Below are positions 34,306-44,717 of a DNA stretch of 64,000 nt, in pieces; position 1 is the first letter of the stretch, and every line of letters begins with the position of its first letter. Origin of the DNA: an uncultured cyanobacterium. GTDB lineage: Bacteria > Cyanobacteriota > Cyanobacteriia > PCC-6307 > Cyanobiaceae. Under the pieces are notes generated by a model. It was not told the DNA's origin. It worked only from the letters and a program-made list of their open reading frames with translations, and did no database searches. Position numbers and translations under genes: made by a program. The stretch is from assembly GCA_963697335.1 (NCBI GenBank), contig CAVONQ010000016.1, positions 32,001-96,000 on the forward strand. The letters run 5' to 3'.

Positions 34306-35807
<1,502 letters not shown>

Positions 35808-35808
<1 letters not shown>

Positions 35809-38426
35809 TGAGGCCCGCGGCCGCTGGTCGGGCCAAGGGTGGCGCCGGCGTGGATGCCCGGGCCATCCGCTGGCGGGTCCGGCGCTTCACCCTCGCCTGG
35901 TATCTCGTGGTGACGGGCCTTCTGCTCGGGGCGGCGGGCATCACCTTCTGGAGGTTGCAGCTGACCATCCAGGAGTTCGCCGGCCAGCGGGTGACCATGG
36001 TTCGGGAGAACCTGGGCAAACAGCTCAAGATCACCGACGAGACCTACCGAAAACTCGCCCTTGCGGCGATGCGGGTGTTGAAGGCTGATTTTCAGGTCCT
36101 GGGAGCGGCCCGGTTGGGATCGGGCAGCGTGCGCAGCGGTGACCAAACCGTGCCGGATCTGCGCTTTGGTGAGTCGCCGGTGGCCGACCAGGCCGCCCTC
36201 GTGGAGGAGGTGTCGGCCCAGCTGGGCGCGACCGCCACCGTGTTCGTGGCCCGCGGCGACCGGTTCATCCGGGTGGCTACCACGGTGAACGATCAGGAGG
36301 GCACCGCCGCCATAGGCACCGACCTGGAGCCGGGCGGTGAGGTCATTGAGGCCCTGCGGCAGGGCGGGGTGTTCATCGGCGTGGTGGACATTCTCGGAGC
36401 GCCCTACTTCTCGGCCTATGAACCGATCCGCGACGGCCAGGGTCGGGTGATCGGCGCCTTCTACGCGGGCTACCCCATGGCCTCCCTTTCGGAGATCGGC
36501 CGCTCGGTGCGCGATGCCAAGATCCTTGAAAATGGCTTCGTGGCCCTCACCGATTCCCAGGGGGGCCAGCTGTTTCGCTCCTCGGGCGCCACCGCCGACC
36601 TTGTTGAGAGGGTGCTGCGCGAGGTTCCGGCCCCGACGGAAGAATCAGCCATCGGCGGGCTCGACGGCTACCGGGTGACCCGCACCCGGTTCGCTCCCTG
36701 GGGCTTCGACATCGTGATCGCCCGGTTCAATCCGGACATCGATCAGCTGACCTTAAGGCTCACCGTCGGGGTGCTCTGGCTGATGGCCGTGGTGATCGCC
36801 ACCGTGCTGGTGCTCTCCTGGTGGTTCAGCCAGCGGCTCTCCCATGCGCTGATTGCCGGGGAAATCGCCAGGCGGCGGGCCGATCTGGAGCGCAGGTCGG
36901 CCCGGGCCGCCAAGCGGGTGGCTGACCAGGCCAGCCAAGCCAAGAGTGCCTTCCTGGCCAATATGAGCCACGAGCTACGTACGCCGATGAACGCGATCAT
37001 CGGCTACAGCGAGATGTTGATCGAGGAGGCCGAGGAGATCACCTCTGGCCAGATGGTGCTGGACCTTCGAAAAATCCAGGCTGCCGGCAAACATCTTCTG
37101 GCCTTGATCAATGGTGTGCTCGATCTCTCCAAGATTGAGGCCGGAAAGATGACCCTCTATCTGGAAGACTTTGATCTGGCTGAGGCAATCCATGAGGCGG
37201 CCACCACGGTGACCCCGCTTCTGAGGGAGCATCAGAATCATTTCGTGCTCGACTGCCCAGATGGGCTGGGCACGCTGCGATCCGATCGCACCAAGTTTCG
37301 CCAGTGTCTTCTCAATCTTCTCAGCAATGCCAGCAAGTTCACGGAACGGGGAGAAATCAGCCTGCGGGTGATCAACGATCTCGCTGATCACCGCATTCGG
37401 GTGGTGGTTCAGGACACCGGCATCGGCATGACTGCCGAGCAGATGGAGCACTTGTTCGAGAGTTTCAACCAGGCCGACAGCAGCACCACCCGCCGCTACG
37501 GCGGAACCGGTCTGGGCCTGGCGATCAGTCGTCAATTCAGTCGGATGATGGGTGGCGACATCACGGTGGCCAGTTGTCCCGGCCAGGGCAGTTGCTTCAC
37601 CCTGACCCTCCCCCGGTCGCTGGAACAGCCCGGGCCCGCTTTGGCAGAGCCGGGCCAGCCGGAGCCTGGTCCCGCTGATCTGCTGGCCCCCAGGGGTCGG
37701 GTGCTGGTGGTCGACGATGACCCCGCTGCCCTAGAACTCGTCAGCCGTTTCCTGGCTCGGGACGGCTACGCCGTCACCACCACGTCCAGCGGGGATGAGG
37801 CGATCGCCCTGGCCCGCCAGATCAAGCCCGATGCCATCACCCTGGACGTGATGATGCCGGGACTGGATGGCTGGAGCGTGCTGGCGGCTCTTAAGGCCGA
37901 TCCGGAGCTTGCCGCGGTTCCCGTGGTGATGATGAGCATGTTGGACAACCTCGAGCTCGGCTTTGCGGCGGGCGCGGCGGAATGCCTGACCAAGCCGGTG
38001 GACTGGAGCCGCTTCGAGCGGATCCTCGGCCGCCTGACTCCGGTCGATTCCCAGGCGCCAGCGCGGGCTCTGGTGGTGGAGGCTGACCCCGCCAGCGCCG
38101 ACTTGCTCCGCCGCATGCTGGAGAAGGGGGGTTGGGCTGTGGATCAGGCCAGAGATGGGCAGGAGGCACTGAAGGTGCTGGCCCGCTTCCGCCCGACGGT
38201 CATCCTGCTCGATCTGATGATGCCCCGCATGGACGGCCTGGACTTCGTCGAGCGGCTGCGGCGCAACCCCGCCGCAGCGAGCATCCCTGTGATCGTGATC
38301 ACAGCCCATACCCTGACGCCCGAGGACCAGGCCCGCCTCAATGGCCGGGTCAGCGATGTGATCAGCAAGGGATCCCTCAGCGCCGCCGCCCTTTCCGAGC
38401 AGATCAATGCGATTCTGGCCAGCTGA
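35808..38426 (+). CDS. membrane hybrid sensor histidine kinase (TM-Cache-TM-HisKA-HATPase-REC-REC)
   Basis: ATVFV..FIRVATT, YEPIRD..VIGAFY (Cache), FLANMSHELRTPMN, NLLSNASKFT, DTGIG, GGTGLGL, two receivers; ATG overlaps pds TGA. Confidence 0.93.
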
Positions 38427-38453
38427 TTCCCCCTTGGCCGCCCGTTGCCAACC

Positions 38454-38840
38454 ATGACCCGTGTGCTGCTGGTCGAAGACAACGACATGAACCGGGATAT
38501 GTTGTCCCGCCGCCTGACCCGCAGGGGCTTCACCGTGGTGATGGCGATCAACGGGGAAGCGGCCCTGGCCATGGTCGCTGCCGAGACCCCCGACCTGATC
38601 CTGATGGACATGAGTCTGCCCGTGATCGACGGGTGGGAAGCGACCCGCCGCCTCAAGGCGGATCCCGCCACCGCCACCATCCCCGTGATCGGCCTCACCG
38701 CCCACGCCATGGAGGGAGATCTGCAGGCTTGCCTGCAGTCGGGCTGTGATGATTACGACACCAAGCCTGTGGACCTGCCGCGCCTGCTCAACAAGATCCA
38801 GACCCAGCTGCAGCGGCTTCAGGCCGGGGCGGAGGCCTGA
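38454..38840 (+). CDS. single-domain response regulator (DivK-like)
   Basis: LLVEDN, ILMDMSLP..DG, LTAHAM, DTKP. Confidence 0.93.
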   Translation: MTRVLLVEDNDMNRDMLSRRLTRRGFTVVMAINGEAALAMVAAETPDLILMDMSLPVIDGWEATRRLKADPATATIPVIGLTAHAMEGDLQACLQSGCDDYDTKPVDLPRLLNKIQTQLQRLQAGAEA

Positions 38841-39886
38841 TGGGGCTTGGCCATCCACCTGCGGGCTCCGGCCCCCCCGATCCTGCGGGATCCGGAGACC
38901 AGTCAATGGCGGAGCTGCGCCATGACCTCATCAACCCGATCAACCAGATCCTCGGCTACAGCGAATTGCTCGAGGAGGATGCCCGCGACCGGTACCCCGA
39001 TGCCGTGGAGGACCTCGGCAAAATCCAGCAGGCAGCCGGCACCCTGCTGAGCCTGCTGCAGACGCGGCTCGTCGGGGCCCTCGAGAGTCCCGCTGGACCC
39101 AACCAGCTCCTTGTTAACCAACTGTTACCCAGCACGCCGCTGCCCGACCAGGAGTCCGGGGGGGCGGCCCCCCGGACGGGACAGATCCTGGTGGTGGATG
39201 ACGATGCAGCCAACCTCGAGCTTCTCGCCCTGCGGCTGCAGCGCCAGGGGCATGGCGTCACGTCCGCGTCCGATGGAGAGGAGGCTCTGGAGCGGCTCCG
39301 CCATCACGCCTTCGACCTGCTGCTGCTCGACGTGATGATGCCGCGCCTGGATGGCTACGGCACCCTGGAGCGCCTGAAGATCCATCCCCAGTGGAGGCAC
39401 CTGCCGGTGATCATGATCAGTGCTCTCGATGAGCTCTCCAGCGTCGTGCGCTGCATCGAGGCGGGGGCGGATGACTACCTGGCAAAGCCCTTCAATCCCA
39501 CGCTGTTGCGCGCCAGGATCGGCGCCTGCCTCGACAAGAAGGCCAGCCGGGATCAGGAAATCGCCCTTTACAACACTCTGGTGAGAAGCCAGCAACGGCT
39601 TCGGGCCGACGTCGATGCCGCTCGCAGCCAGGTCGAGTCTCTGGCTCCGGAGCTGCGCGAAGATGCCCGTGTCAGTCCCGTGCTGGCGGCGCTGGCCCGC
39701 ATGGCCGGCGCGGTCTCCCTACGGGAGAATGACTTACGGGTCACCCTTCAGGAACTGGAGATCAAGATCAACCGGCAGGCCCTCACCACGCAAGTCAGCT
39801 CCATCGTCAGCGACCCTGCCTTCTCGGCACTTTCCGAACGGGCCAGGGCGATGCGGAGCCGCCGCCGGCCTCAGGGAGGCGACTGA
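38840..39886 (+). CDS. DHp(HisKA)-receiver protein with uncharacterised coiled-coil C-terminal tail
   Basis: LRHDLINPINQILGYSELL H-box, no HATPase; LVVDD..LLDVMMP..ISA..AKP receiver; tail LEIKIN..QVSSIVSDPAF..RARAMR. Confidence 0.85.
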   Translation: MGLGHPPAGSGPPDPAGSGDQSMAELRHDLINPINQILGYSELLEEDARDRYPDAVEDLGKIQQAAGTLLSLLQTRLVGALESPAGPNQLLVNQLLPSTPLPDQESGGAAPRTGQILVVDDDAANLELLALRLQRQGHGVTSASDGEEALERLRHHAFDLLLLDVMMPRLDGYGTLERLKIHPQWRHLPVIMISALDELSSVVRCIEAGADDYLAKPFNPTLLRARIGACLDKKASRDQEIALYNTLVRSQQRLRADVDAARSQVESLAPELREDARVSPVLAALARMAGAVSLRENDLRVTLQELEIKINRQALTTQVSSIVSDPAFSALSERARAMRSRRRPQGGD

Positions 39887-40833
39887 TGGACGCCCTGCTC
39901 TGCCACCATGGCCCTCACCACGGTCACCCTGTCGTGCTGCCCAGCCTCGACCAGGCCTACGAGGACTGCCGCCAGGAGACCGCCCAGTGGGCCAAGACTT
40001 TCTATCTGGGAACCCTGCTGATGCCGACGGCCAAGCGCCGGGCGATCTGGGCGATTTATGTGTGGTGCCGCCGCACCGATGAACTGATGGACAGCGCCGA
40101 GGCCCAGGCGCGTCCCAAGGCGGAACTGGCGGCCCGGCTCGACCACTGGGAAGAGCACACCCGCGAGTTGTTCGAAGGGGTTGTGCTCGATGGCCTCGAT
40201 CTGGTCATGCGCGACACCCTGGAGCGCTACCCCCAGCCCCTCCAGGCCTATCTCGACATGATCGAGGGCCAGCGCATGGATCTGCGTCGGCAGCGCTACC
40301 CCAGCTTCGACGACCTGGAGCTCTACTGCTACCGGGTGGCCGGCACGGTGGGATTGATGACACAGGAAGTCATGGGCCGGGACGCGGCATACACCTCGGC
40401 CCCCTGGAGCGACGCCCCAGACACCACCGCAGCGGCGGTAGCCCTTGGCATTGCCAATCAGCTCACCAACATCCTGCGGGACGTGGGCGAAGACCGGGCC
40501 CGTGGCCGCATCTACCTTCCCCAGGAGGACCTGGCCCGTTTTGATTACGGCGAGGACCAACTTATGGCCGGGGTCTTCAATGACAACTGGCGGGCTCTGA
40601 TGCGCTTTCAGCTGGAGCGGGCCCGCCACTGGTTTGCCCGTGCCGAGGACGGCGTGCGTTGGCTGGCGCCTGATGCCCGCTGGCCGGTGTGGGCATCGTT
40701 GCGGTTGTACCGCGGCATCCTCGATGTGATCGAGCAGCAGAACTACGACGTGTTCAACAAGCGCGCCTTCGTGCCGAGCAGCGGCAAGCTGCTCGACCTG
40801 CCACTGTCATTCGTGGTCGCCCAGGTGCGCTGA
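39886..40833 (+). CDS. crtB: phytoene synthase
   Basis: AKTFYLGT, YVWCRRTDELMD, YCYRVAGTVG, QLTNILRDVGED..RGRIYLP. Confidence 0.97.
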   Translation: MDALLCHHGPHHGHPVVLPSLDQAYEDCRQETAQWAKTFYLGTLLMPTAKRRAIWAIYVWCRRTDELMDSAEAQARPKAELAARLDHWEEHTRELFEGVVLDGLDLVMRDTLERYPQPLQAYLDMIEGQRMDLRRQRYPSFDDLELYCYRVAGTVGLMTQEVMGRDAAYTSAPWSDAPDTTAAAVALGIANQLTNILRDVGEDRARGRIYLPQEDLARFDYGEDQLMAGVFNDNWRALMRFQLERARHWFARAEDGVRWLAPDARWPVWASLRLYRGILDVIEQQNYDVFNKRAFVPSSGKLLDLPLSFVVAQVR

Positions 40834-40835
40834 CG

Positions 40836-42398
40836 GTGCCGCGACTTCCCTGGCTACCGCCGTTGGCCACGGCGCTCCTGATCTGCTGCCTTCCCCCCCT
40901 ACCCCTACGCGCCGAGTGGGAACCCATCGTGCTCCCCAGCGATCTGGAGGTGGAGGCCCTGGGAAGTGGGTGGACCGGTGAACTGCCCCGCTCGGACCCG
41001 GCGCCGCTGCCGGCGGAGCAGCTCACGTCTCTGTCGATGGATCAGGCGGTTCGCTGGTCGAGCCAGCGCAATCCGGTGATCCGTTCGGCGTTTCAGAACC
41101 TGGTGGCCACCCAAAACAGCCTGGGAGCTCAGTACGCCCGCTGGTGGCCAGTGATCAATGTCTCGCTCACCGGGGGGCTCTACGGGCAGGATTCGGGTGT
41201 CAGCGGCACCAGCCTGAATGGGGGTGGCTTCGGCGGTGGCGGTGGCGGCGGCGGCGGCGGCGGCGGCAGTTTCGGCCCCGATGGGGGCTATTTCTCCTCG
41301 ATTGCCCAGGTGGACGCCACCTGGAATCTGATCGACCCCTCCCGGGCACCGGCCATTTGGAAGGCCAAATATCAGGTGCGCCAGGCCGCCGATGCCTACG
41401 TCATCGCCTACCGCGACAACCGTTTGCAGGTGGAGTCGGCGTTCATTGCCCTGCAGGCCGCGGCGGCTCAGGTGCAGGCCAGCAGGCTGATCGTGGATAA
41501 CGACGGCCTGCTCCTGCAACTCACGGAGGCCAAGCTCCGCCTTGGGGTAGCCTCGCGGCTCGATGTGACCAAGCAGAAAACGGTTCTGTTTGCCGACCAG
41601 GTTGACCTTGAGCAGGGTGTCAAGGCGGTCGCGATCGCCCGCAGTCAGCTGGCTGAGTTGCTCAACGTGGACCAGCCGGATCTGATCAACCCAGGCGCCG
41701 CCCTGGTTCCGCTGGGCGTGTGGCCCCACAGCCTTGATCAAACCGTGGAGGCCAGCCTTGCCTACCGCAAGGTGATCCAGCAGAAGCTGCTGGATGTGAA
41801 AGTCTTTGAAGCTGATGCCCAGATTGCCCTGGCTGTCTACCAGCCCACGCTTCAGCTGATCAATACTCTTTATTGGAACCGCAATGCCTATTGGACAGAG
41901 TCGCTGAGAAGCTATGTGTTCAATCCGTCCTCTGCGTTGACTCTCACCTTCACTGGCTTCGACGGGGGGCAGGCACGGATGGAGGCAGAGGCCTCCAGGC
42001 GGAAGTCGGCGGCCGCTGCCCAGGACTACCTGGCAGCCAGGAATTCTGCGCGACAGGAGGCGCAGGCCGATTTCGCCAAGGTGGACGTGGGCCGCAAGGT
42101 GCTGTTGGCTTCGGCCAATGAAGTGGAGCAGGCCAACAAGGCGATTCGGCTTCAGAGCCTTCGCTTCAATGCAGGCTATGGCACGATCACCGATGTGGTT
42201 CAGGCTCAGTTGAGCCTTGCTCAATCAGTTCTCTCGTTTGTCGAAAATCTTAAGGACTACAATCAGTCCCTGACCAGTCTGGCCAGAAACACCGGACTTA
42301 ATTATGTGACTGATTCAGTATTCAGCCGTGATGTGGGTCAGCCTTTGTCGGAATTAGAGCGCCTGCCCGAGCTATTCGATCGACGCACCGGCGGCTGA
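40836..42398 (+). CDS. TolC family outer membrane protein with poly-Gly tract
   Basis: Signal peptide, RNP, WWP..VSL, GVASRLDV, FDGG, RFNAGYGTITDVVQAQ repeats of OEP family; GTG start 40836. Confidence 0.85.
   Translation: MPRLPWLPPLATALLICCLPPLPLRAEWEPIVLPSDLEVEALGSGWTGELPRSDPAPLPAEQLTSLSMDQAVRWSSQRNPVIRSAFQNLVATQNSLGAQYARWWPVINVSLTGGLYGQDSGVSGTSLNGGGFGGGGGGGGGGGGSFGPDGGYFSSIAQVDATWNLIDPSRAPAIWKAKYQVRQAADAYVIAYRDNRLQVESAFIALQAAAAQVQASRLIVDNDGLLLQLTEAKLRLGVASRLDVTKQKTVLFADQVDLEQGVKAVAIARSQLAELLNVDQPDLINPGAALVPLGVWPHSLDQTVEASLAYRKVIQQKLLDVKVFEADAQIALAVYQPTLQLINTLYWNRNAYWTESLRSYVFNPSSALTLTFTGFDGGQARMEAEASRRKSAAAAQDYLAARNSARQEAQADFAKVDVGRKVLLASANEVEQANKAIRLQSLRFNAGYGTITDVVQAQLSLAQSVLSFVENLKDYNQSLTSLARNTGLNYVTDSVFSRDVGQPLSELERLPELFDRRTGG
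41232..41267 (+). repeat. trinucleotide GGY repeat encoding 12 Gly, including (GGC)8
   Basis: GGC GGT GGC GGT (GGC)8 directly visible. Confidence 0.9.
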
Positions 42399-42433
42399 TC
42401 TCTCTCTCAGCGTCTCGAGTCTCACGTTTCGTC

Positions 42434-43872
42434 CTAGGGAGGGTCAAGTGCGCGATTGCGCCGGGCCCGCATGGCCCGGGCCCGTTGGTTCAGCCGGGTG
42501 AAGTTGGGATCCTTGACAATGGAGCATATCTGGCCGTGGAGTTCCTCCTGGTTGATGTCGATTTCCAGGGTCTTGATCTTGGCGAGCAGGGAGTCTCCCC
42601 GGTCAGCTACGGCCAGGGCCATGGAGTTGAACGCCTGCACAAGCCGTCCTAGGGCATCATTGCCGGCGTAGCTGATGGCCTGGCGGCGTTGGCCGTTGCT
42701 GATCGCAGTTGCGGCTGCGGCAAGCTCACGTAGTTGCTGCCGAATGCCTTCAGAAATCCGCCACGCCGCCAGTCCGCAGAAGCCGATCAGACCTAGGGTC
42801 GCTACCGATAGCTGCACCAGGATCCTGAAGGTGTCTGACTGCAACGGCCTGAGCGATTTCAGTAGGGCCTTATTGTCGACGCTCATCACACTGATCCAGT
42901 CCCAGGCTGGGAAGACAGAGATGAACAGGGTGCGCTCTTCCCCCACCGTCCGGGAGTCGCCGGTAGCGGCGCTCCGGCGTTCCATCAGGTAGGGATCGCC
43001 GCTGCCGGAGACCCTGGGCAGCCCACCGGTGGCCTGGAGATCCTTGATCAGATCCTGGCAGGCGGCTTGTCCAGGTTGGGAGTAGAGGCAGATGGGCCTG
43101 TTCGAGGCCGAAAGGCCAAGGAAGGCCAGTTGATGGTCAGCCTGGGGAACAGGTTTGTGGCCGTCTCCAGCAGACTGGAGGCTGCATCGGTTCGCACACT
43201 CACCGAGAGCACCAGTCGTGCGGGGACCGGGTCGGGGCCCAGGGCCGTCAGCTCGCTGAGGCGCCATCCGTGATCCTCCCTCACCAGAGTGCTCTGGGTG
43301 AGCAGTGTTCCGCTGGGGGTGAGATCCAGGGATTCCAACTGTTTTGCCGTTGTGTCTGGTACCCGCCAGAGCGTGGGGAGTGTTGTGTTCTTATCTGTGA
43401 CGCCCGCCAGGCGAAGCCAGCTTTTCCCCTCACGGGTGTAGTAAACAGAGGCGCTCTTGTTGGGCGTGGCCAGGCCCAGCCTCAGGGCGTTGATGACGAC
43501 CTGCTCGGCGGCCTCCCTGGAGAGCGGTTGCCCTTTCCAGCGGAACCCGCCGTCAGGATCCATACCGAGATCCTGCAGGCTTGCCGCCAGACGCTTGCTG
43601 TCATCGGACAGATAGTCTGCGGTCTGATCGGCGCTGCTTTGAATCAATCGGGTGGCGGTCCTTACCCGGGTCAGGTTGTCCTGGTCAATCAGCTTGGTGA
43701 TGTCGTGCCCAGCCTCTCTGGAAAGCCGTAGAGCTGTCATGGAGGAAATCAGAAAGAAGATGGCCATGCTCACCAGCGGACCGCTGACACCCAGAACGAT
43801 CAGCCGCGTTGAGAGCCCCATGGCTGGGCGCCGCGCTGGTGTTTCATCCTTGGGCGCTCCTTGACGGCTCAT
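42434..43872 (-). pseudogene. membrane receptor (TM-Cache-like-TM-HAMP-tail) split by one frameshift; pseudogene or sequencing error
   Basis: ORF 43048..43872 has TM1; ORF 42434..43267 has FPAWDW, TM2, HAMP (LRELAAAATAI..DALGRLVQAFNSM); one extra base in G4 run 43144-43147 joins them into 479 aa. Confidence 0.75.
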
Positions 43873-43946: not shown

Positions 43947-44717
43947 ATGGTGATGCCTAAAATCATCTCAGTCCACTCTTTCCGTGGTGGTACTGGAAAG
44001 TCTAATCTGACTGCAAATCTTGCCTTCGCTTTCGCGATGCAGGGCAAGAAAGTTGCCGTCTTTGATACCGATCTTGCCTCGCCAGGGATCCACGTTCTGT
44101 TTGGATTCTCGGTTCAGCCTGGCCAGACCACACTGAATGACCATCTGCAGGGATCGGCTCCGATCAAGGACTGTGCCTACAATGTAACGCCAGAACAGGC
44201 TAAGTCCTCCCGCGGCCGGATCTGGTTGGTGCCAGCGTCCATGGAGAGCGACCGCATTGCCCGATTGCTGCGGGAGGGATATCAGGTTGAGCGCCTGAAT
44301 GACGCCCTCTTTGCTCTCGCAGAAACCCTTGGGCTCGATCTCGTGCTGATCGATACCCACCCCGGGATCAACGAGGAAACCCTCCTTTCTGCGGCCATCT
44401 CCGATGTCCTTGTCATCGTGATGCGTCCCGATTCCCAGGACTATCTCGGTACGGCGGTGGCGATTGAAGTGGCGGAAAGGCTGGAGGTGCCCGCCATTCG
44501 TATGGTGGTCAACAAGGTGCCCAGTCATTTCGACCCAGATCAGGTGCGCGAACGGGTGGCCCGCAGTTACGGCGTTCCTATCGGGGCCTCCCTCCCCCTC
44601 AGCGAAGACCTGCTCACCATTGCCAGCGGCAGCCTGGCCCTGGTGGACGTTCCTGGCCACCCGTGGAGCGCCGGCGTGACCCAGCTCGCCACCGACCTGG
44701 CCGATGTGCTGCGCTGA
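43947..44717 (+). CDS. MinD/ParA family ATPase
   Basis: HSFRGGTGKSN deviant Walker A, FDTDL..PG, LIDTHPG, VVNK; GGAGG-like RBS upstream; start 43947 or 43953. Confidence 0.9.
   Translation: MVMPKIISVHSFRGGTGKSNLTANLAFAFAMQGKKVAVFDTDLASPGIHVLFGFSVQPGQTTLNDHLQGSAPIKDCAYNVTPEQAKSSRGRIWLVPASMESDRIARLLREGYQVERLNDALFALAETLGLDLVLIDTHPGINEETLLSAAISDVLVIVMRPDSQDYLGTAVAIEVAERLEVPAIRMVVNKVPSHFDPDQVRERVARSYGVPIGASLPLSEDLLTIASGSLALVDVPGHPWSAGVTQLATDLADVLR

Follow-up and report, generated by a model that had tools for sequence, protein, structure and literature searches.

A 55-residue C-terminal tail common to cyanobacterial sensor proteins and its link to a MinD/ParA-like ATPase

What does one and the same C-terminal tail do on two signalling proteins that are otherwise unrelated? 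The question is raised by a 64,000-nt stretch of DNA from an uncultured cyanobacterium of the Cyanobiaceae (assembly GCA_963697335.1, contig CAVONQ010000016.1, positions 32,001 to 96,000; hereafter the window, in whose own numbering all coordinates are given). A protein with DHp-like and REC domains and, on the opposite strand, a membrane sensor with a HAMP domain both carry there a C-terminal module of the same kind, 55 amino acids (aa) long (Table 1). We find that this tail is a widespread C-terminal module without a family name, present in Cyanobacteria and Chloroflexota, and that its genes are linked to, co-inherited with and frequently fused to those of a MinD/ParA-like ATPase, one of which adjoins the sensor gene in the window. 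It is rather probable, in our judgement, that the tail is a docking or transducer element by which several sensors control one ParA-like ATPase.

The tail as a C-terminal module

The sequence-only reading of the window, made before this analysis, had noticed the two tails, and both translations are exactly as quoted there: 28 of the 55 residues are identical in a gapless alignment, and BLASTP gives an E-value of 3e-11. The likeness, which that reading had left to be judged against shuffled coiled-coil controls, is real and not an effect of coiled-coil composition. The Smith-Waterman score of the pair is 123; plain shuffles (n = 20,000) have a mean of 22.2 (SD 4.3) and a maximum of 49, shuffles that preserve the heptad-position class (n = 20,000) have a mean of 25.5 and a maximum of 59, and the observed score was attained by 0/20,000 in either set. 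The likeness begins about six residues before the tail proper, in a HAMP-AS2-like stretch (VLAALARMAGAV vs LVQAFNSMALAV), and the two copies are the only ones in their genome.

That the module has no named family, as had been suspected, also held up. No model in Pfam or NCBIfam and no PDB sequence covers it, the PDB profile search giving chance-level matches (E about 1); the ESM Atlas returned clusters labelled 'hypothetical protein' only, at 0.78-0.81, too low to be more than a lead; and a Foldseek search of PDB had no match at E <= 1e-3, with HAMP-DHp kinases as its weak top rows. A profile of 21 tails (A3), searched against 1.84 billion cluster representatives (50% identity), matches 1,836 clusters at E <= 1e-3, of which 210 also pass E <= 1e-10. 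Among the best 150 matches the tail stands close to the end of the protein, with a median of 7 residues C-terminal of it and more than 30 in 7/150. A Pfam scan of these 150 places HAMP upstream of the tail in 81, REC in 8 (5 of them also with HisKA), cNMP_binding in 6, and GAF in 3; of the others, many are short fragments from metagenomes without a Pfam match. Sensor domains that accompany the tail in the same set are dCache_1, sCache_2, sCache_3_2, Tll0287-like, and ECF-ribofla_trS, and further loci add the architectures CHASE2-tail and Nif11-dCache-HAMP-tail.

The suspicion of a shuffled module is borne out by this catalogue of HAMP, HisKA-REC, cNMP-binding, GAF, CHASE2, and Cache/Tll0287 sensors, in which the tail is C-terminal to at least six different upstream architectures. 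A HAMP-AS2-like stretch precedes it in cNMP-tail and REC-tail proteins; in the GAF-tail proteins among the best 150 no HAMP was detected by the Pfam scan. Carriers include soluble one-domain cNMP sensors of ~235 aa, and database annotations of the carriers are generic ('HAMP domain-containing protein', 'CRP-like cAMP-binding protein', 'GAF domain-containing protein', 'response regulator'). Species-representative genomes that we scanned hold at least 493 confirmed tail loci, of which 80 were kept (33 cyanobacterial, 44 from Chloroflexota, and 3 other or unassigned).

The pattern by which the tail was noticed, LEIxIN ... SIVxDPxF ... RARAMRxRR, stands for the subtype of the window and is local to it; the family-wide consensus is RExxLxxQVxxLxIEIDxxKxxxQVxEIxxxxxFxxLxxxAxxxRxR, and the basic RARAMR end is not kept across the tail subtypes compared. 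We asked whether the tail could be a generic coiled-coil or S-helix-like extension without a specific partner, the likeness reflecting common descent of a HAMP-plus-linker unit. The tail does nearly always follow HAMP or a HAMP-like helix, and in the model described below the AS2 helix runs on through the first 36 residues of the tail. However, specific motif positions are conserved across two phyla, the likeness exceeds every heptad-preserving shuffle, there are GAF-tail forms without detected HAMP, and the ATPase evidence given in the next section counts against such a linker as well, all of which makes it very improbable.

An AlphaFold2 model of HAMP plus tail of the window sensor (45-row alignment; pLDDT 90.4, pTM 0.53) has three helices, at residues 2-27, 42-88, and 91-111. 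The AS2 helix is extended by ~36 residues through LEIDIN...SIV, breaks at K-D-P, and is followed by a 20-residue terminal helix. The HAMP match of the sensor (PF00672; 1.1e-5, 26.0 bits vs a cutoff of 25; residues 176-218 of its C-terminal open reading frame, ORF) stops where the tail starts, and the tail alone has no HAMP match; the tail itself is therefore not HAMP. As to DHp/HisKA, neither tail has a HisKA match and neither of the alignments A3 and A4 has a conserved His column; by these marks the tail is not a DHp hairpin. S-helices are coiled coils of ~40-50 aa between two signalling domains, with a central ERT-type motif; by eye, no such motif is seen in the tail, which does have a conserved R-E close to its beginning, and the tail is terminal in the window and in most members, lying between sensor and ATPase in most of the fused forms described below.

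Two readings of the tail as a DNA- or RNA-binding element touch on the same model. A ribbon-helix-helix reading of 'LEIDIN' plus two helices was dropped because the AlphaFold2 model has helices and no strand. More broadly, the end of the local subtype, RARAMRxRR, would suit nucleic-acid binding, with the carriers as one-component regulators. To this we give hardly any credence: the modelled tail consists of helices only, the residues at alternating positions are acidic (E, D), some subtypes lack the basic patch, and the tail matches no DNA-binding family in Pfam and PDB sequence searches.

Linkage, co-inheritance, and fusion with a MinD/ParA-like ATPase

When the genes that surround the tail genes of the 80 loci are clustered, a MinD/ParA-like ATPase of ~256 aa recurs, and those from other phyla are 45-54% identical to the ATPase of the window over the full length. 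The latter is matched in Pfam by CbiA (6e-16, 59.0 bits; cutoff 25.4), ParA (1.2e-15, 58.0 bits; cutoff 27.1), and AAA_31 (5.6e-13, 49.6 bits; cutoff 27). Conserved motifs are HSFRGGTGKSN, DTDxxSPGIH, IDTHPGxNEETL, and RPDxQDYxGT, and in an alignment of 24 sequences (A6) G14-G15-T16-G17-K18-S19, D40, D42, and D136 are invariant. A deviant Walker A motif opens with a signature lysine (KGGxxGK[ST]); the Pfam matches and the Walker A and switch aspartates agree with this class of ATPase, the signature lysine does not, its position being Arg in 24/24 A6 sequences (R13, 'HSFRGGTGKS'). No NCBIfam cutoff is reached (for the TIGR01969 / TIGR01968 pair tested, minD_arch 87.9 vs 201.75 and minD_bact 41.3 vs 212.9), and by these two models the protein is not a bona fide MinD. 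The nearest solved relative of the ATPase profile is archaeal MinD-1 (1hyq, E 6.2e-22), and the family is tight, with a mean column identity of 61% across two phyla. By sequence, the window ATPase is a member of a distinct, highly conserved MinD/ParA-like family.

The gene for this ATPase lies directly 3' of the tail gene, on the same strand, in seven of eight further cyanobacterial loci. Across the broad loci from Cyanobacteria and Chloroflexota, 31/80 hold a ParA-like gene at least 40% identical to that of the window, and 18 of the 38 loci of at least 12 kb hold a ParA-like gene, with minimum distances of 1 to 5,590 nt. Co-inheritance is close to perfect. In an order-level sample of 201 genomes, a first search found the tail in 39, the ParA-like ATPase in 41, and both in 38; in each of the three ATPase-only genomes a tail gene was found beside the ATPase on closer inspection (E 1e-9 to 1e-19), bringing the genomes with both to 41. 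The tail match in the single tail-only genome is weak and partial (E 0.005; 0.07-0.14 in a later search). In a phylum-level sample of 301 genomes the tail was found in 48, the ATPase in 49, and both in 46.

In relatives of the window genome, the kinase-REC-tail operon and the HAMP-tail gene behave as independent insertions around crtB, either of which may be absent, and wherever one of them occurs the ATPase does too. Because either tail gene occurs alone, homo- or heterodimerisation of the two tails, for which structure prediction had been suggested, is not required by the data and is superfluous as an explanation. We also considered the ATPase as a mere syntenic neighbour, persisting where the HAMP-tail gene is absent, and dropped this reading because every such genome carries another tail gene nearby.

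We further find that tails and ATPases match each other as paralogues. Picocyanobacterial ATPases fall into three types. Those of type 1, to which the window ATPase belongs, accompany the genes of HAMP-tail and DHp-REC-tail proteins; type 2 (39-46% identical to that of the window) lies ~1 kb from a cNMP-tail gene in 11/11 cases; and type 3 adjoins large dCache-HAMP-tail genes in 5/5. The mean identity between tails is 0.47 for HAMP type 1 vs DHp-REC and 0.21 for HAMP type 1 vs dCache-HAMP. Judged from these sequences, the tail tracks the ATPase paralogue to which it is linked rather than the domain that precedes it. In addition, sensor, tail, and ATPase are often one polypeptide. The tail stands directly N-terminal of the ATPase in 83 of 93 long proteins (those of more than 448 aa in which the ATPase domain is matched at E <= 1e-30), with cNMP, HisKA-REC, dCache, or PAS domains upstream of the tail, in the same order as in the two-gene form.

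For the sequence-only suggestion of an interaction domain, linkage, co-occurrence, paralogue matching, and fusion thus offer the ATPase as candidate partner, and so does a predicted complex. A model of the window ATPase with the tail of the sensor scored an ipSAE of 0.74, 0.74, and 0.73 in three runs, against 0.07 for the best of three controls; the mark that it passes is reached by 116/157 solved complexes and 2/215 mismatched pairs, counts that apply here only roughly, our model having been built from our own alignments. The runs share at least 96% of their contacts, with a partner pLDDT of at least 75. The predicted interface comprises a conserved core of the tail (L19, I21, I23, L28, I32, I35, L44, and R52) and residues 141-151, 161-180, and 194-207 of the ATPase. 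Direct binding, and the interface through which it would occur, are supported by the model only.

Could the tail instead be a self-association or membrane cap, closing a four-helix bundle or placing a basic amphipathic end at the membrane, with an indirect link to the ATPase? The modelled helix, D-P kink, and second helix would suit such a cap, as would the weak Foldseek resemblance to HAMP-DHp hairpins, none at E <= 1e-3, and the Arg-rich amphipathic helix that ends the local subtype. However, a cap leaves unexplained the near-perfect co-inheritance with one ATPase family, the paralogue matching, and the fusions of fixed order; its basic end is not conserved, and the complex model passed where all three controls stayed at or below 0.07. 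We consider a cap improbable.

Several observations weigh against a tail-ATPase partnership of the kind that we favour. Linkage is not universal, since 49/80 broad loci have no ParA-like gene within the fetched locus. Two genomes of the phylum-level sample are tail-only (one has a degenerate, internal match, the other a match at the edge of a contig) and three are ATPase-only (one with a weak possible tail nearby, two with none within ~6 kb); the sampled genomes are related and hence not independent observations. Read-through in gene calling could account for some of the 83 fusions. The complex was modelled 1:1 when both proteins are probably dimeric, its score is the model's own confidence, and that score could in part stem from likeness to solved MinD-partner complexes. 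The modelled interface of the ATPase does not stand out by conservation (0.695 vs 0.677 elsewhere in the protein), and 7,334/20,000 random sets are at least as high. Finally, R52 is invariant in A3 and A4, and the basic C-terminal helix is nonetheless acidic in some type-3 tails, so that an 'arginine finger' mechanism would not be general.

Proposed control of the ATPase and known systems

ParA/MinD ATPases work by ATP-dependent dimerisation. In our proposal, the tail prolongs a HAMP or HAMP-like helix as a coiled coil, ends in a short helix after a kink, and serves to dock the sensor on a MinD/ParA-type ATPase dedicated to it, in the window the one listed in Table 1. The signalling state of the sensor would pass through the tail to the ATPase, most likely by control of its ATP-dependent dimerisation or turnover; we infer both this direction and the effect on activity. 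Because ParA/MinD proteins dimerise with ATP and the tail continues a signalling helix, the state of the sensor may set dimerisation or hydrolysis, much as HAMP/S-helix linkers act on other dimeric output domains. In the window genome, a receptor of periplasmic signals and a phosphorelay would both feed into one ATPase.

The same evidence of linkage, co-occurrence, fusion, and modelled complex fits equally well if the tail is a cargo tag, bound by an ATPase that positions or segregates the sensors, with no information flowing from sensor to ATPase; cargo positioning is what ParA/MinD ATPases are best known for. Covalent fusion of the ATPase behind sensor and tail, in the great majority of the long proteins, is however odd for a motor and its cargo. 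Positioning is also hard to motivate for the ~235-aa soluble cNMP carriers, and several different sensors share one ATPase per genome. A cargo tag thus appears rather unlikely to us, and we retain control of the ATPase by sensors as the preferred reading. Its extension to a new class of signal transduction in Cyanobacteria and Chloroflexota, in which many sensors (HAMP receptors, phosphorelay receivers, cNMP, GAF, CHASE2, Cache, and haem-PAS) act through a common 55-aa tail on a ParA-type switch, in trans or fused, is possible, and we put it forward tentatively.

We propose, by analogy, that the tail acts like a partner element of the MinE/ParB type combined with a transducer of the S-helix type. 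As in MinE-MinD and in ParB or ParG N-termini with ParA or ParF, a short helical element would bind an ATPase of the deviant Walker A group. The modelled tail touches the ATPase helices after switch II (residues 141-180), presumably roughly where MinE and MinC bind MinD. Unlike MinE and ParB, the tail is C-terminal on sensors and not part of a dedicated partner protein; it is ~55 aa with a long coiled coil and often fused before the ATPase, and its basic residues are not universal. Like the S-helix and the transducer element of cyclases, the tail is a helical, probably dimeric linker that continues the HAMP helix, and in fused forms it lies between a sensor and a dimerising catalytic domain. 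It differs in that it mostly ends the protein, with the output on a separate polypeptide, in the added D-P kink and terminal helix, and in its output, a ParA/MinD ATPase rather than a cyclase, GGDEF domain, or kinase.

Other ParA-family proteins have partners in signalling. PpfA, which is ParA-like, positions a cytoplasmic chemoreceptor cluster (TlpT), and ParC/ParP act with chemotaxis arrays; here too a ParA-family ATPase would be partnered with HAMP- or receptor-type signalling proteins. These systems position chemoreceptor arrays via other contact elements, whereas tail carriers are without methyl-accepting chemotaxis protein (MCP) signalling domains and include REC, cNMP, and GAF proteins. 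FleN/FlhG, which acts on the regulator FleQ, is a case of a MinD-like ATPase in regulation and not in division, and FleN (5j1j) is a distant match to the ATPase profile at E 2.3e-11; the tail-partner family is closest to 1hyq and reaches no NCBIfam cutoff, and we know of no tail-bearing sensor partner of FleN.

KaiC-like ATPases have been proposed as archaeal signal-transduction hubs (Makarova et al. 2017, as related in PMC5847659). As far as that account goes, the concept is the same, a P-loop ATPase with many sensors; superfamily, lineages, and linker differ.

Full-text literature searches returned no tail and no sensor-coupled ParA-like ATPase of this kind, although REC-ATPase fusions may be listed in a census of response regulators, and the sensor-tail-ATPase route appears to be undescribed. 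If it is real, a ParA-family ATPase would rank with kinases, cyclases, and GGDEF domains as an output domain of general use in signalling, and ParA/MinD ATPases would have a new use as signal-controlled switches, not positioning motors. About 1,800 clusters of carriers, many without a recognisable output, would gain a testable one in a specific ParA/MinD-like ATPase, and an 'orphan' ParA-like family of filamentous cyanobacteria and of the ecologically important picocyanobacteria would have a likely role. A Pfam-type family could be defined straight from alignments A3 and A4. One cluster of carriers (P0152) includes proteins annotated by NCBI as Synechococcus elongatus response regulators; since these carry the module, experiments would be feasible in a tractable model organism.

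Genes around the tails

The gene order of the window is pds, hybrid kinase, REC, HisKA-like-REC-tail, crtB, TolC-like, sensor (on the minus strand), and ATPase (on the plus strand); the coordinates are collected in Table 1.

Table 1. Features of the window and of related loci discussed in the text
Feature	Coordinates	Strand	Remarks
Hybrid histidine kinase: Cache_3-Cache_2, HisKA, HATPase_c, two REC	35619..38426	+	first gene of phosphorelay operon
Single-domain response regulator (REC)	38445..38840	+	second operon gene; Pfam Response_reg 6.6e-27
HisKA-like (DHp, H-box 'LRHDL'), REC, HAMP-AS2-like stretch, tail	38840..39886	+	Pfam REC 2.5e-30
Tail module copy 1, 55 aa	39701..39865	+	member of profiles A3 and A4
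crtB	39886-40833	+	
TolC-like outer-membrane efflux paralogue	40689..42398	+	Pfam OEP 5.9e-37; real start probably near 40890
Membrane sensor: N-terminal transmembrane segment, periplasmic domain, transmembrane segment, HAMP, tail	42434..43872	-	two overlapping ORFs, 43872..43048 and 43267..42434
Tail module copy 2, 55 aa	42458..42622	-	in AlphaFold2 model of HAMP plus tail; partner chain in complex model
MinD/ParA-like P-loop ATPase	43947-44717	+	divergent from sensor gene; Pfam CbiA, ParA, AAA_31
Alpha/beta-hydrolase ORF, 428 aa	44614-45900	-	domain at residues 13-280
284-aa protein with seven hydrophobic segments	L041:1594-2445; matching place in L038-L040, L043-L045, L049-L051		no Pfam or NCBIfam family

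The hybrid kinase is matched by Response_reg (7.9e-45), Cache_3-Cache_2 (5e-38), HATPase_c (1.8e-29), and HisKA (3.3e-18); its ORF overlaps the end of pds, for which reason the true start is probably downstream of 35619. In relatives it is syntenic with the tail gene, and the single REC gene between the two is a conserved arrangement. The HisKA match of the tail protein itself (8.4e-6, 26.2 bits) is slightly below the cutoff of 26.9, which orthologues exceed (e.g., P0011 with 40.5 bits); in another orthologue, P0089, HAMP is also scored between REC and tail. As no ATPase domain is present, this product probably acts in phosphotransfer and as a receiver. The stop codon of its gene overlaps the start of crtB (window 39883-39889). 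A 160-aa database protein (P0017) runs from the tail into the N terminus of phytoene synthase, probably through a gene-calling read-through in a relative.

The same gene order recurs in locus L140, where one operon (L140:7646-12558) encodes a Cache-HAMP hybrid kinase (985 aa), a HisKA-REC-tail protein (410 aa), and a cNMP-tail protein (246 aa). The two tail genes are adjacent there, and that genome has its ParA-like gene at another place.

In this assembly one base is missing from a C-run near 43143-43150, and the resulting frameshift breaks the sensor gene in two. Its orthologues P0003 and P0004 (462 and 475 aa) have an unbroken reading frame, and in public runs 4/4, from four studies, gave contigs with one extra G behind 43143 (plus strand); none of these runs matches all sampled words of the stretch, the best reaching 0.71. 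Given the extra base in the four other data sets and the intact orthologues, the frameshift represents an error of the assembly or else a lesion or pseudogene specific to this strain.

Membrane proteins are co-inherited with two of the picocyanobacterial ATPase types. Orthologues of the TolC-like gene (E <= 1e-100) occur in exactly the 30/201 genomes with a type-1 ATPase (E <= 1e-108); a different TolC-like gene, about 30% identical, is widespread. In cNMP-type loci, the 284-aa protein of Table 1 lies between the type-2 ATPase and the cNMP-tail gene in 10/10, and tblastn found no homologue of it in the window genome (E <= 1e-3). Their presence hints at a function in the envelope or in transport. 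Beyond tail and ATPase, no gene is common to all the loci.

Some tail loci have characteristic neighbours. In 12 filamentous-cyanobacterial loci (L053, L056, L060, L062, L067, L071, L072, L076, L077, L099, L102, and L103), an Asp/Glu racemase, an SBP_bac_3 protein, and a sodium:dicarboxylate symporter precede a ~490-aa HAMP-tail sensor, a row that suggests amino-acid sensing. Clusters from Chloroflexota (L053-L132, e.g., L068, L101, L108, L112, and L125) contain a small FeoC/MarR-like winged helix-turn-helix (wHTH) protein, a TLC/MFS-like membrane protein of ~446 aa, a 445-aa ATP-grasp protein, and PrsW proteases, and also GNAT, SET or Ddl plus radical-SAM enzymes and adenylate-cyclase-AAA_16 proteins of 1,200-1,340 aa. 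No counterpart of the wHTH protein was seen in the window, where a 97-aa ORF without a family match follows the ATPase; no genome-wide profile search was made for it. In two cyanobacterial loci, at L141:9382-11670 and L143:5020-7655, a ParA-like gene is followed by genes for a DUF7005 protein and a protein with two cNMP domains. The hydrolase ORF of Table 1 has relatives that align over only ~275-296 aa; its C-terminal 130 aa overlap the end of the ATPase gene and may be spurious or a strain-specific extension.

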